Positions 20,914-50,602 of a DNA stretch of 64,000 bases are shown in pieces (position 1 is the first letter of the stretch; every line of letters starts with the position of its first letter). Below the pieces are notes generated by a model. That model was given only the letters and a program-made list of their open reading frames with translations. It did no database searches and had not been told where the DNA came from. The stretch comes from Escherichia coli (GTDB taxonomy: Bacteria; Pseudomonadota; Gammaproteobacteria; Enterobacterales; Enterobacteriaceae), in assembly GCF_003334815.1 (NCBI RefSeq), contig NZ_QOWO01000010.1; one strand, 5' to 3'. Both the position numbers and the translations under genes were made by a program.

Positions 20914-20927
20914 TACATATCGTTACA
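20914..20927 (+). promoter_or_regulatory. RstA-box match in the asr promoter region
   Basis: TACATATCGTTACA fits the RstA box TACATNTNGTTACA as recalled, about 105 bp upstream of the asr start. An adjacent Pho-box-like element CTGTAATTTATTCAGCG sits at 20893-20909. Confidence 0.5.
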
Positions 20928-21030: not shown

Positions 21031-21339
21031 ATGAAAAAAGTATTAGCTCTGGTTGTTGCCGCTGCTATGGGTCTGTCTTCTGCCGCCTTTGCTGCAGAGA
21101 CTACGACCACACCTGCTCCGACTGCGACGACCACCAAAGCAGCGCCGGCGAAAACTACACATCATAAAAAACAGCATAAAGCAGCACCTGCCCAGAAAGC
21201 GCAGGCGGCTAAAAAGCATCATAAAAATACGAAAGCTGAACAGAAAGCCCCTGAACAAAAAGCGCAGGCAGCGAAGAAACACGCCAAGAAACACAGCCAT
21301 CAGCAACCGGCAAAACCTGCTGCACAACCCGCAGCGTAA
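21031..21339 (+). CDS. asr: Acid shock protein (periplasmic, Lys/Ala/His-rich)
   Basis: ORF 21004..21339 trimmed to the ATG at 21031 ([21 protein letters not shown], 102 aa). Signal peptide and internal KAQAAKKH repeats. Confidence 0.85.
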
Positions 21340-21431: not shown

Positions 21432-21515
21432 ATGGTGGGCCGTTATCGCTTTGAGTTCATTCTGATCATCCTTATTTTATGCGCACTGATTGCCGCCCGT
21501 TTTTATCTTTCCTGA
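21432..21515 (+). CDS. ydgU: Small hydrophobic protein (27 aa)
   Basis: ATG at 21432 preceded by a GGAGGG RBS with a 5-nt spacer. Translates to MVGRYRFEFILIILILCALIAARFYLS, then TGA at 21513-21515. Too short for the ORF track; matches the position and sequence of E. coli ydgU as recalled. Confidence 0.5.
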   Translation: MVGRYRFEFILIILILCALIAARFYLS

Positions 21516-30630: not shown

Positions 30631-31353
30631 ATGGGTAAAACCCAGCCCTTGCCAATATTAATTACTGGCGGAGGTCGTCGCATCGGCCTCGCCCTCGCAT
30701 GGCATTTCATTAATCAAAAGCAACCGGTGATTGTCAGCTATCGGACACACTATCCAGCCATTGATGGACTGATTAATGCAGGTGCGCAGTGTATTCAGGC
30801 TGATTTTTCGACCAACGACGGTGTGATGGCGTTTGCCGATGAAGTACTAAAAAGCACCCATGGTCTGCGTGCTATTTTGCATAACGCCAGTGCGTGGATG
30901 GCGGAAAAACCGGGTGCGCCACTGGCCGACGTACTGGCTTGCATGATGCAGATCCACGTTAATACCCCATACCTGCTCAACCATGCGCTGGAAAGATTAC
31001 TGCGTGGGCACGGACACGCCGCCAGCGATATCATTCACTTTACCGATTATGTGGTGGAGCGCGGTAGCGACAAACATATTGCGTATGCTGCAAGCAAAGC
31101 GGCACTGGATAATATGACCCGCTCGTTTGCCCGCAAGCTGGCACCGGAAGTGAAAGTGAATTCTATTGCGCCATCGCTGATCCTGTTTAATGAACATGAT
31201 GATGCCGAATATCGACAACAGGCGCTGAATAAATCACTGATGAAAACCGCGCCTGGCGAGAAAGAAGTGATCGACCTGGTCGATTACTTACTTACCAGTT
31301 GCTTTGTCACCGGACGCAGTTTCCCACTTGATGGCGGTCGTCATCTGCGTTAA
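30631..31353 (+). CDS. folM: Dihydromonapterin reductase (short-chain dehydrogenase/reductase)
   Basis: 240-aa SDR with N-terminal GGGRRIG and catalytic YAASK motifs. Confidence 0.9.
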   Translation: MGKTQPLPILITGGGRRIGLALAWHFINQKQPVIVSYRTHYPAIDGLINAGAQCIQADFSTNDGVMAFADEVLKSTHGLRAILHNASAWMAEKPGAPLADVLACMMQIHVNTPYLLNHALERLLRGHGHAASDIIHFTDYVVERGSDKHIAYAASKAALDNMTRSFARKLAPEVKVNSIAPSLILFNEHDDAEYRQQALNKSLMKTAPGEKEVIDLVDYLLTSCFVTGRSFPLDGGRHLR

Positions 31354-31685
31354 TGCAGCTTTATCCAGCATATAATCAACACCCATGCGCTTATCCCCCA
31401 ACACGCAACAGAACCAACAAAAGCGGCGGGCAAGCGCATCATTCCGGTGAAATACCACAGCGACACCAGGTAAACAAAATAGGGAATAATCGACCACATA
31501 CTAAAAATGATGGTTGCGCGTAAGGCTTCAATGCCGCGTTCGCTGGCAACAATATAATGCGCGATAAGCGCAAAGGTCGGGAAAAGTGGAATCAGCCCGG
31601 CGATATAATAATTTTTCGTTTTTGCTAAAACACCAATCAACAGCACTACCAGCGCACCGAGCGCGGCTTTGATTACCAGCCCCAT
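31350..31685 (-). CDS. ydgC: GlpM-family small inner-membrane protein
   Basis: 111-aa four-TM protein. Its stop codon overlaps the folM stop codon convergently (shared TTAA). Confidence 0.8.
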   Translation of the reverse strand: MGLVIKAALGALVVLLIGVLAKTKNYYIAGLIPLFPTFALIAHYIVASERGIEALRATIIFSMWSIIPYFVYLVSLWYFTGMMRLPAAFVGSVACWGISAWVLIICWIKLH

Positions 31686-31813
31686 CTTTTTACCTTAACA
31701 CTTCCATAACAAGTCATCAGTAGAATACCTGATGAAAACTTGTTTAGAAACGATTGATAGTAAGTAAAAACAGCGCGGTGTATTGTGACGTTTTTATATC
31801 TACCGTGAATGTT

Positions 31814-32533
31814 ATGAACACTATCGTATTTGTGGAAGATGATGCGGAAGTCGGTTCACTGATTGCCGCGTACCTGGCAAAACATGATATGCAGGTTACC
31901 GTAGAGCCGCGCGGCGACCAGGCCGAAGAAACCATTTTGCGAGAAAATCCGGATTTGGTGTTACTCGACATCATGCTACCAGGCAAGGACGGCATGACCA
32001 TTTGTCGTGATTTACGCGCAAAGTGGTCTGGACCGATTGTTCTTCTAACCTCTCTCGATAGCGATATGAACCACATCCTGGCACTGGAAATGGGTGCCTG
32101 CGACTATATTCTCAAAACGACGCCCCCTGCTGTTTTGCTAGCGCGTTTACGTTTGCATTTGCGTCAGAATGAGCAAGCCACACTGACCAAAGGTCTTCAG
32201 GAAACGTCTCTGACTCCCTACAAAGCCCTGCATTTCGGCACGTTGACCATCGATCCCATCAACCGCGTAGTCACCCTGGCTAACACTGAAATCTCGCTCT
32301 CGACAGCTGATTTCGAATTATTGTGGGAATTAGCTACCCATGCCGGGCAAATCATGGACCGCGATGCATTGCTGAAAAATTTACGCGGCGTCAGTTATGA
32401 CGGACTGGATCGTAGCGTGGACGTGGCTATTTCGCGGTTAAGAAAAAAACTGCTCGATAACGCCGCAGAACCTTATCGCATTAAAACTGTGCGTAACAAA
32501 GGCTATCTTTTTGCGCCTCATGCATGGGAATAA
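31814..32533 (+). CDS. rstA: OmpR-family two-component response regulator
   Basis: ORF 31754..32533 trimmed to the ATG at 31814 (MNTIVFVEDD, 239 aa). Receiver domain followed by a winged-helix DNA-binding domain. Confidence 0.9.
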   Translation: MNTIVFVEDDAEVGSLIAAYLAKHDMQVTVEPRGDQAEETILRENPDLVLLDIMLPGKDGMTICRDLRAKWSGPIVLLTSLDSDMNHILALEMGACDYILKTTPPAVLLARLRLHLRQNEQATLTKGLQETSLTPYKALHFGTLTIDPINRVVTLANTEISLSTADFELLWELATHAGQIMDRDALLKNLRGVSYDGLDRSVDVAISRLRKKLLDNAAEPYRIKTVRNKGYLFAPHAWE

Positions 32534-32536
32534 GCG

Positions 32537-33838
32537 ATGAAAAAACTGTTTATCCAGTTTTACCTGTTATTGTTTGTCTGCTTCCTTGTGATGTCTCTGC
32601 TGGTTGGGCTGGTGTACAAATTTACCGCCGAACGCGCGGGCAAACAGTCGCTGGATGATTTGATGAACAGTTCGCTGTATCTGATGCGCAGCGAATTGCG
32701 TGAGATCCCCCCACACGACTGGGGTAAAACTCTGAAAGAGATGGATTTAAATCTCTCTTTCGATCTGCGTGTCGAGCCACTGAGTAAATACCATCTTGAT
32801 GATATTTCCATGCACCGACTGCGTGGCGGCGAAATTGTCGCCCTGGACGATCAGTACACGTTTTTGCAGCGTATCCCGCGCAGCCACTACGTGCTGGCAG
32901 TTGGTCCTGTTCCTTATCTTTATTATCTCCATCAGATGCGATTGCTGGATATCGCCCTGATCGCTTTTATTGCTATTTCCCTCGCCTTTCCGGTGTTTAT
33001 CTGGATGCGTCCGCACTGGCAGGATATGTTAAAACTGGAAGCAGCGGCGCAACGATTTGGCGATGGGCATCTCAATGAACGTATCCACTTTGATGAGGGT
33101 TCGAGCTTTGAACGACTTGGCGTCGCATTTAACCAGATGGCGGACAATATCAACGCCTTAATTGCCAGCAAAAAACAGCTTATTGACGGTATCGCTCACG
33201 AACTGCGAACACCGTTAGTGCGCCTGCGTTATCGACTGGAGATGAGCGATAACCTGAGCGCCGCCGAATCCCAGGCGTTGAATCGTGATATCAGTCAACT
33301 TGAAGCTTTAATTGAAGAGCTGCTGACTTATGCCCGACTCGATCGCCCACAAAACGAGCTTCATCTTAGCGAACCAGACCTGCCGTTGTGGCTGTCAACG
33401 CATCTGGCAGATATTCAGGCAGTAACGCCCGATAAAACGGTACGGATAAAAACGCTCGTGCAAGGCCATTATGCGGCGTTGGATATGCGCTTAATGGAGC
33501 GCGTGCTGGATAATTTGCTCAATAACGCCCTGCGGTACTGCCATTCAACGGTTGAAACAAGCCTGCTACTGTCGGGGAATAGAGCGACATTAATTGTTGA
33601 GGATGATGGCCCAGGGATTGCCCCAGAAAACCGCGAACATATCTTTGAACCTTTTGTTCGCCTCGATCCCAGCCGGGATCGCTCAACCGGCGGCTGCGGG
33701 CTGGGGCTGGCAATTGTCCACTCTATAGCACTGGCAATGGGCGGTACGGTTAATTGTGACACCAGCGAACTGGGTGGTGCCCGCTTCTCGTTTAGCTGGC
33801 CGTTATGGCATAACATCCCGCAATTTACCTCTGCCTGA
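32537..33838 (+). CDS. rstB: Two-component sensor histidine kinase
   Basis: 433-aa ORF with two transmembrane segments, a HAMP domain, an H-box (HELRTPL) and an ATPase domain. Starts 4 bp after rstA. Confidence 0.9.
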   Translation: MKKLFIQFYLLLFVCFLVMSLLVGLVYKFTAERAGKQSLDDLMNSSLYLMRSELREIPPHDWGKTLKEMDLNLSFDLRVEPLSKYHLDDISMHRLRGGEIVALDDQYTFLQRIPRSHYVLAVGPVPYLYYLHQMRLLDIALIAFIAISLAFPVFIWMRPHWQDMLKLEAAAQRFGDGHLNERIHFDEGSSFERLGVAFNQMADNINALIASKKQLIDGIAHELRTPLVRLRYRLEMSDNLSAAESQALNRDISQLEALIEELLTYARLDRPQNELHLSEPDLPLWLSTHLADIQAVTPDKTVRIKTLVQGHYAALDMRLMERVLDNLLNNALRYCHSTVETSLLLSGNRATLIVEDDGPGIAPENREHIFEPFVRLDPSRDRSTGGCGLGLAIVHSIALAMGGTVNCDTSELGGARFSFSWPLWHNIPQFTSA

Positions 33839-33880: not shown

Positions 33881-36243
<2,363 letters not shown>

Positions 36244-38230: not shown

Positions 38231-39406
38231 ATGCAAAAACTCATTAACTCAGTGCAAAACTATGCCTGGGGCAGCAAAACGGCGTTGACTGAACTTTATG
38301 GTATGGAAAATCCGTCCAGCCAGCCGATGGCCGAGCTGTGGATGGGCGCACATCCGAAAAGCAGTTCACGAGTGCAGAATGCCGCCGGAGATATCGTTTC
38401 ACTGCGTGATGTGATTGAGAGTGATAAATCGACTCTGCTCGGAGAGGCCGTTGCCAAACGCTTTGGCGAACTGCCTTTCCTGTTCAAAGTATTATGCGCA
38501 GCACAGCCACTCTCCATTCAGGTTCATCCAAACAAACACAATTCTGAAATCGGTTTTGCCAAAGAAAATGCCGCAGGTATCCCGATGGATGCCGCCGAGC
38601 GTAACTATAAAGATCCTAACCACAAGCCGGAGCTGGTTTTTGCGCTGACGCCTTTCCTTGCGATGAACGCGTTTCGTGAATTTTCCGAGATTGTCTCCCT
38701 ACTCCAGCCGGTCGCAGGTGCACATCCGGCGATTGCTCACTTTTTACAACAGCCTGATGCCGAACGTTTAAGCGAACTGTTCGCCAGCCTGTTGAATATG
38801 CAGGGTGAAGAAAAATCCCGCGCGCTGGCGATTTTAAAATCGGCCCTCGATAGCCAGCAGGGTGAACCGTGGCAAACGATTCGTTTAATTTCTGAATTTT
38901 ACCCGGAAGACAGCGGTCTGTTCTCCCCGCTATTGCTGAATGTGGTGAAATTGAACCCTGGCGAAGCGATGTTCCTGTTCGCTGAAACACCGCACGCTTA
39001 CCTGCAAGGCGTGGCGCTGGAAGTGATGGCAAACTCCGATAACGTGCTGCGTGCGGGTCTGACGCCTAAATACATTGATATTCCGGAACTGGTTGCCAAT
39101 GTGAAATTCGAAGCCAAACCGGCTAACCAGTTGTTGACCCAGCCGGTGAAACAAGGTGCAGAACTGGACTTCCCGATTCCAGTGGATGATTTTGCCTTCT
39201 CGCTGCATGACCTTAGTGATAAAGAAACCACCATTAGCCAGCAGAGTGCCGCCATTTTGTTCTGCGTCGAAGGCGATGCAACGTTGTGGAAAGGTTCTCA
39301 GCAGTTACAGCTTAAACCGGGTGAATCAGCGTTTATTGCCGCCAACGAATCACCGGTGACTGTCAAAGGCCACGGCCGTTTAGCGCGTGTTTACAACAAG
39401 CTGTAA
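38231..39406 (+). CDS. manA: Mannose-6-phosphate isomerase, type I
   Basis: ORF 38153..39406 trimmed to the ATG at 38231 (MQKLINSVQNYAWGSK, 391 aa). PMI type I signature. Confidence 0.95.
   Translation: MQKLINSVQNYAWGSKTALTELYGMENPSSQPMAELWMGAHPKSSSRVQNAAGDIVSLRDVIESDKSTLLGEAVAKRFGELPFLFKVLCAAQPLSIQVHPNKHNSEIGFAKENAAGIPMDAAERNYKDPNHKPELVFALTPFLAMNAFREFSEIVSLLQPVAGAHPAIAHFLQQPDAERLSELFASLLNMQGEEKSRALAILKSALDSQQGEPWQTIRLISEFYPEDSGLFSPLLLNVVKLNPGEAMFLFAETPHAYLQGVALEVMANSDNVLRAGLTPKYIDIPELVANVKFEAKPANQLLTQPVKQGAELDFPIPVDDFAFSLHDLSDKETTISQQSAAILFCVEGDATLWKGSQQLQLKPGESAFIAANESPVTVKGHGRLARVYNKL

Positions 39407-47806: not shown

Positions 47807-50602
<2,796 letters not shown>

Follow-up and report, generated by a model that had tools for sequence, protein, structure and literature searches.

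The combined evidence identifies, with high confidence, positions 31741-31757 of the DNA analysed here, a window of 64,000 nucleotides, as the PhoP box of the Escherichia coli rstAB promoter. The site, TGTTTAGAAACGATTGA (TGTTTA-gaaac-GATTGA, plus strand), was recognised by its sequence, by its PWM score and by its orthology to a footprinted PhoP box of Salmonella. A PhoP box driving rstA at this place had been regarded as plausible in the original prediction, and the PWM, a distance of 23 nt to the -10 region, conservation, a transcription start located downstream and the PhoP dependence described in the literature all agree with it. The PhoP box of rstA is already known, and it is ordinary, not new. 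The link between PhoP and rstA has been in the literature since 2003-2012, and its confirmation adds nothing new for specialists.

The window is part of the E. coli chromosome. Positions 2399-64000 are 99.97% identical to K-12 MG1655; for positions 1-2398 no alignment was obtained to K-12, whose cryptic prophage Qin end (IS2E, intQ pseudogene) is situated there. This mismatch and a 1-nt indel relative to K-12, which lies somewhere before approximately 14.9 kb, indicate that the strain is close to K-12 but not MG1655. In the 4 kb around rstA, two coding differences to K-12 were detected, and the rstA promoter is base for base that of K-12. The 1.3 kb surrounding the box were matched in 5,423 of 5,426 complete E. 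coli genomes. Gene order in this region is ydgI, folM (plus strand), ydgC (minus strand), rstA (plus strand), rstB, tus, and fumC. Based on open reading frames and RefSeq annotation (K-12 and other E. coli), rstA extends from 31814 to 32533 and rstB from 32537 to 33838, both on the plus strand, and the regulated operon rstA-rstB spans 31814-33838. The ATG of rstA at 31814 is the current K-12 start (NP_416125.2). The divergent gene ydgC occupies 31350-31685 on the minus strand, and the intergenic region of 128 nt between ydgC and rstA therefore holds two divergent promoters. Between rstB and tus, an exact Tus-binding Ter core, GTATGTTGTAACTAAAG, is present at 33886-33902 (plus strand), which we take to be TerB. 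It adjoins a tus transcription start among the entries listed from Kim et al. 2012 (PMC3415461). Another feature of the window is a set of tandem repeats in rsxC (58230-58750) with a period of 96 nt, which are 87-91% identical according to off-diagonal BLAST matches.

The half-sites of the box, TGTTTA (31741-31746) and GATTGA (31752-31757), both on the plus strand, are (T/G)GTTTA-like hexamers in direct repeat, exactly 5 nt apart and separated by gaaac. In K-12 MG1655, the box is found at NC_000913.3 1,682,086-1,682,102. Relative to the A of the rstA ATG it extends from -73 to -57, and the predicted location about 60-75 bp upstream of the start was essentially right (57-73 nt as measured). The first half-site, said to match (T/G)GTTTA, does so in all six positions. 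The second had been described as degenerate, and it indeed deviates from (T/G)GTTTA at positions 2 and 5, leaving four of six residues identical, or five if GTTGA is also accepted. Random decay does not account for the A at position 2, however, because GAT-T is kept in nearly all orthologues. Second half-sites of the GAT-T type are a recognised variant of the PhoP box in Table 1 of Zwir 2012 (PMC3335776). A full-text literature search for the exact 17-mer gave no match. PhoP-like hexamers in an 11-bp register also flank the box, and the series TGATGA (31730-31735), TGTTTA, GATTGA, and AGTAAA (31763-31768) is contained in 31729-31769. The register-shifted 19-mers score 10.6 bits (31729-31747, which shares the TGTTTA half-site) and 6.2 bits (31751-31769); the upstream hexamer TGATGA is not conserved beyond E. 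coli.

When the window was searched for KGTTTA-N5-KGTTKA, two matches with at most one mismatch were obtained where 2.2 were expected, and 31 with at most two mismatches where 28.6 were expected. Such numbers correspond to chance, and they would fit the assumption that the repeat is a fortuitous resemblance to a PhoP box in AT-rich intergenic DNA without function, as would the presence of other PWM matches of 12-16 bits in the window for which no PhoP role is known. A different picture emerged with a 19-column PWM derived from 37 footprinted Salmonella PhoP boxes (Table 1 of Zwir 2012, PMC3335776), from which rstA had been left out. The rstA box ranked first among 127,964 positions on both strands, with 16.3-16.4 bits depending on the background, and it was also first if only the 24 'activating' boxes were used. 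With 16 promoter-proximal direct boxes, a training set in which boxes whose first half-site is degenerate prevail, it reached 11.4 bits and rank 12. The exact P-value of the box is 8e-7 for a uniform background and 1.4e-5 for the AT-rich composition of the intergenic region, and 0.0002-0.003 PWM matches at its score would be expected in these 128 nt, which argues against a chance match. Its score exceeds 31 of the 37 leave-one-out scores of footprinted boxes, placing it above background and within the range of such boxes. The boxes of rstA (16.3 bits), phoP (15.1 bits), and mgtA (16.4 bits) are comparable, and a site failing to shift in Shigella scores 10.5 bits. In the intergenic region, the only other matches of at least 9 bits are the 10.6-bit match at 31729-31747 and one on the minus strand in the ydgC leader (9.5 bits).

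The apparent mismatches in the second hexamer are almost free in the PWM, A at position 2 contributing +0.1 bit and G at position 5 -0.2 bit. The match had been called weak; with the first rank in the window, a P-value of 8e-7, and a score level with the phoP and mgtA boxes, this judgement does not hold. The PWM scan suggested as a check placed the site far above background, and the available footprint, that of the Salmonella orthologue, covers the orthologous 17-mer and no other place. In terms of calibration, counting mismatches to the consensus undervalued a genuine, experimentally supported site, while matrix scan, distance between box and -10 region, and phylogenetic footprint recover the rstA box unambiguously.

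PWM matches elsewhere in the window, all on the plus strand, include CGTTTTACCTTTTATTTAT at 48873-48891 in the divergent malI-malX intergenic region (15.5-16.2 bits), AGGTTAATTGTTTTTTTAA at 61945-61963 upstream of dtpA (14.1 bits), and CCGTTTAGCGCGTGTTTAC at 39376-39394 (12.9 bits, one mismatch to the consensus), which is located at the 3' end of manA, approximately 113 nt upstream of ydgA.

Downstream of the box, a -10 hexamer, TATTGT (31781-31786, plus strand), is found, which is preceded by GGTG (block 31777-31786) and homologous to the Salmonella -10 sequence TATGTT. From the end of the box at 31757 to the start of TATTGT at 31781 the distance is exactly 23 nt, and the box is in direct orientation. 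This arrangement is that of architecture III promoters, in which a single direct PhoP box lies 21-23 nt upstream of -10. The hexamer at the -35 position, TAGTAA (31758-31763, plus strand), is 17 nt away from -10, corresponds to TGGAAG of Salmonella, and agrees with TTGACA in three of six positions. A scan with the sigma-70 consensus did not detect a stand-alone promoter at 31600-31900. The poor -35 and the negative scan were not counted against the promoter, because poor -35 regions are expected in activator-dependent promoters.

Among the entries listed from supplementary file 2 of Kim et al. 2012 (PMC3415461), an rstA transcription start supported by two reads is given at 1680165 in NC_000913.2. 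Mapping by means of the old GTG start (1680174, window 31805) placed it at an A in position 31796 (plus strand), resulting in an rstA leader of 18 nt. The promoter string of this entry, AGAAACGATTGATAG...GACGTTTTTA, starts inside the box. The start site follows TATTGT by 9 nt, a long gap resting on two reads, and from the Salmonella promoter a start at about 31792 would be expected; distances between box and start are therefore uncertain by about 4 nt. Measured from the transcription start, the box centre is approximately 42-47 nt upstream. The sequence 31787-31795 immediately after the -10 region (G-x-CGTTTTT, over the start site) reaches a conservation of 1.2 bits.

For Salmonella, detailed information on the rstA promoter is available from Zwir 2012 (PMC3335776). 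Its box, TCGTTTAGAAAAGATTTAT, is single and direct, and in DNase I footprinting PhoP-P covers about 20 nt. The box is 23 nt upstream of the -10 sequence TATGTT, the -35 sequence is TGGAAG with a spacer of 17 nt, 5 nt separate -10 from +1, and the leader comprises 21 nt. In vitro, activation depends on the alpha-CTD of RNA polymerase, and the promoter loses its activity when the 17-mer is reversed. The E. coli box is orthologous to this footprinted box (tCGTTTAgaaaaGATTTAt), and 14 of 17 bases are identical (TGTTTAgaaacGATTGA versus CGTTTAgaaaaGATTTA). Both promoters, of which that of Salmonella belongs to architecture III, have a single direct box at the orthologous position, 23 nt to -10, a poor -35 at 17 nt, and a short leader (18-22 nt in E. 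coli, 21 nt in Salmonella). They differ by three substitutions in the box, among them T instead of C at position 1, which makes hexamer 1 of E. coli the better one, and G instead of T at position 5 of hexamer 2. In addition, E. coli has TATTGT and not TATGTT at -10 and TAGTAA and not TGGAAG at the -35 position.

The same single direct repeat, (T/G)GTTTA-N5-(T/G)GTTTA, is known from the boxes of phoP, mgtA, yrbL, and slyB in E. coli, Shigella, and Salmonella, which represent the class II-like architecture I. While these boxes are 11-12 nt away from -10 and overlap the -35 region, the rstA box, at 23 nt, lies farther upstream by one turn of the helix. The mgtA promoter of architecture I does not need alpha-CTD, unlike Salmonella rstA. 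The other architecture III promoter, that of Salmonella ompX, likewise has a single direct box, 21 nt (about two helical turns) upstream of -10, but differs by its leader of 237 nt and by its half-sites GGTTGA and CGTTGA.

To follow the box through the family, a scan of one genome per species was used, which comprised 80 rstA loci of Enterobacteriaceae and, with the window, 81 sequences. The best PWM match within 110 nt upstream of rstA was exactly 23 nt away from the conserved -10 block in 46 of the 81. With 1.9 bits, this block, GGTG-TAT(G/T)(T/G)T, shows the highest conservation of all non-coding blocks, and it includes invariant columns in an alignment of 15 genera. The 67 distinct promoters keeping GGTG-TAT(G/T)(T/G)T were aligned with MAFFT, and an information profile was calculated from the alignment. 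Mean values were 1.2 bits for half-site 1, 1.2 bits for the spacer, 1.7 bits for half-site 2, and 1.45 bits for the -35 position, which reads ATGGAAG in other genera; unconserved DNA between these islands showed 0.2-0.6 bits. E. coli, Escherichia sp. E1V33, and E. albertii share an identical 19-mer, although the bases on either side differ. In Franconibacter, a canonical GGTTTA-tcatt-GGTTGA is present at the same place. Among 5,426 complete E. coli genomes, 5,419 contain the stretch of 74 nt that includes box and -10 (31722-31795), and it is identical in 3,891. The box is thus conserved in orthologous promoters, although some lineages lack it.

Position, orientation, and the spacing of 23 nt are maintained across many genera while the flanks vary, and the orthologous site of Salmonella was protected in footprinting and depends on its orientation, all of which speaks against a fortuitous resemblance. 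Because the low P-value coincides with conserved position and spacing, such an origin was discarded as exceedingly improbable.

No PhoP box was found 23 nt upstream of -10 in Klebsiella sp. BIGb0407, K. oxytoca, K. grimontii, K. michiganensis, K. indica, Kluyvera species, and Cedecea; in total, eleven loci lack the box in the 110 nt upstream of rstA. Most of these lineages are also devoid of the GGTGTATGTT block. It seems that a different rstA promoter has taken over in the K. oxytoca group, in Kluyvera, and in Cedecea. This suggests that regulation was rewired, comparable to the situation in Yersinia, where rstA is described as not being regulated by PhoP.

Another deviation was noted in the Enterobacter cloacae complex, Lelliottia, Leclercia, and Silvania, where the first hexamer has decayed to TAATTT or TAATTG. 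In this clade, represented by 15 loci, the best match is GATTAA-tggaa-GGTTAA about 63 nt upstream of the rstA ATG, 11 bp nearer to the gene and 12 nt from -10. The scores are modest (5-10 bits), and the position is that of architecture I. Judged from these sequences, the box of Enterobacter, Lelliottia, and Leclercia seems to have moved by one turn of the helix towards -10. If true, a promoter of architecture III that depends on alpha-CTD would thereby be converted into a class II-like one of architecture I.

Two further observations concern individual strains and species. In the blood isolate E. coli EC9952 (NZ_CP104595.1), the IS66-family element ISEc23 (tnpA, tnpB, transposase) is inserted between box and -10, from position 2551 of the extracted locus onward, equivalent to 31771/31772 of the window. 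This insertion should uncouple rstAB from PhoP. In Citrobacter amalonaticus and Citrobacter sp. Awk 4, a PhoP-like match of 9-12 bits, for example ATGTTGACGTTTTGTATTT, is situated over -10 and +1. A paper on Salmonella mentions an unpublished PhoP repression site in the rstA promoter (data not shown there). A candidate for such a site over -10/+1 was rejected for E. coli, where nothing on the plus strand reaches 5 bits.

Other response regulators of the OmpR/PhoB family read similar hexamer-N5-hexamer repeats spaced by 11 bp, and the repeat could accordingly be a target of RstA itself, in the form of autoregulation, of PmrA/BasR, or of CpxR rather than of PhoP. For PmrA, the second half-site ATTAAT of orthologues resembles the PmrA half-site CTTAAT, and PmrA acts at some PhoP promoters, yrbL and pmrD. 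The first half-site, however, is a perfect PhoP hexamer and matches the PmrA half-site in only four of six positions, and it is purified PhoP-P that binds the orthologous site. PmrA and CpxR were rejected by eye and from the literature only. RstA autoregulation was dismissed since no RstA box (TACATNTNGTTACA, up to three mismatches) is present in the rstA intergenic region, while a perfect one is located upstream of asr; RstA is also listed among the E. coli regulators not known to autoregulate. A target of a regulator other than PhoP is thus considered very unlikely, and assignment to PhoP is preferred.

The perfect RstA box, TACATATCGTTACA, lies at 20914-20927 (plus strand); the window contains no second exact match, and none would be expected. 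It is found 104-117 nt upstream of asr (21031-21339), a known RstA target. The gene ydgU (21432-21515) downstream of asr was renamed samT in 2026 and encodes a peptide of 27 amino acids feeding back on RstB. PhoP box, rstAB, RstA box, and asr-samT are thus all located within the one window.

Since the intergenic region is shared with ydgC, the box might also serve this gene, PhoP over the -35 region of ydgC repressing ydgC while activating rstA. Next to the box, about 6-8 nt upstream, a block at 31720-31734 reads CAGCATAACGGAA in most genera and GTAGAATACCTGATG in E. coli. It contains a -10-like hexamer, TATTCT (31727-31722, minus strand), a candidate ydgC promoter element 13 nt from the box. 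The distance of 13 nt, the conservation of the block (mean 1.34 bits), and the identity of its invariant bases, which are positions 1, 2, 5, and 6 of a minus-strand TAT(G/T)CT plus G at -14, are in favour of such a dual role. Equally, though, the block could be bound by another factor or serve the rstA promoter as an upstream contact, and a reversed box 12 nt from -10 does not activate (Zwir 2012, PMC3335776). Among the entries listed from Kim et al. 2012 (PMC3415461), no ydgC transcription start is near 31715, which is weak evidence, and the only one assigned to ydgC falls inside rstA at window 31970. No paper linking ydgC to PhoP regulation was found. Taken together, a function of the box in ydgC repression is doubtful.

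The ydgC start mentioned, at 1680339 in NC_000913.2 (window 31970, minus strand) among the entries listed, is antisense in rstA and supported by two reads. It would give a leader of 285 nt that traverses the complete intergenic region, PhoP box included. The conserved block is overlapped by a 7-bp inverted repeat, TCATCAG-tagaatac-CTGATGA (31714-31735), which was flagged on both strands by a terminator scan and is not conserved outside Escherichia.

Functional data from the literature are consistent with the statement in the original prediction that rstA is PhoP-activated. In a phoPQ mutant of Shigella flexneri, the expression ratio of rstA versus wild type is 0.07. PhoP-P shifts an rstAB promoter fragment of Shigella; Table 5 of that work does not contain the rstA box, so that binding is localised to the fragment only. 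In E. coli, rstAB is described as being under positive control of PhoQ-PhoP, a plasmid bearing rstAB and its native upstream region loses its effect when phoP is deleted, and the rstAB promoter was replaced to remove PhoP control. For the rstAB promoter of E. coli, S1 mapping, gel shift experiments, and DNase I footprinting with PhoP were reported by Minagawa and colleagues in 2003. Harari 2010 makes no mention of rstA.

In the preferred explanation, the site works as follows. PhoQ senses low Mg2+, and also mild acid or antimicrobial peptides, and phosphorylates PhoP. A dimer of PhoP-P then binds the two direct-repeat hexamers head-to-tail. The promoter depends on the activator, because only a poor -35 (TAGTAA) is available. 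By analogy to Salmonella, bound PhoP, 23 nt or two helical turns upstream of -10, would recruit RNA polymerase via alpha-CTD, as in architecture III; we infer from this analogy that the Salmonella mechanism, including the alpha-CTD contact, carries over unchanged to the E. coli site. Transcription of rstAB in turn links PhoQ/PhoP to RstB/RstA and its targets, including asr-samT in the same window. The box is the wiring point of a relay from PhoQ/PhoP to RstB/RstA, by which sensing of Mg2+ and acid is coupled to the control of asr-samT, csgD, feoB, and RpoS.
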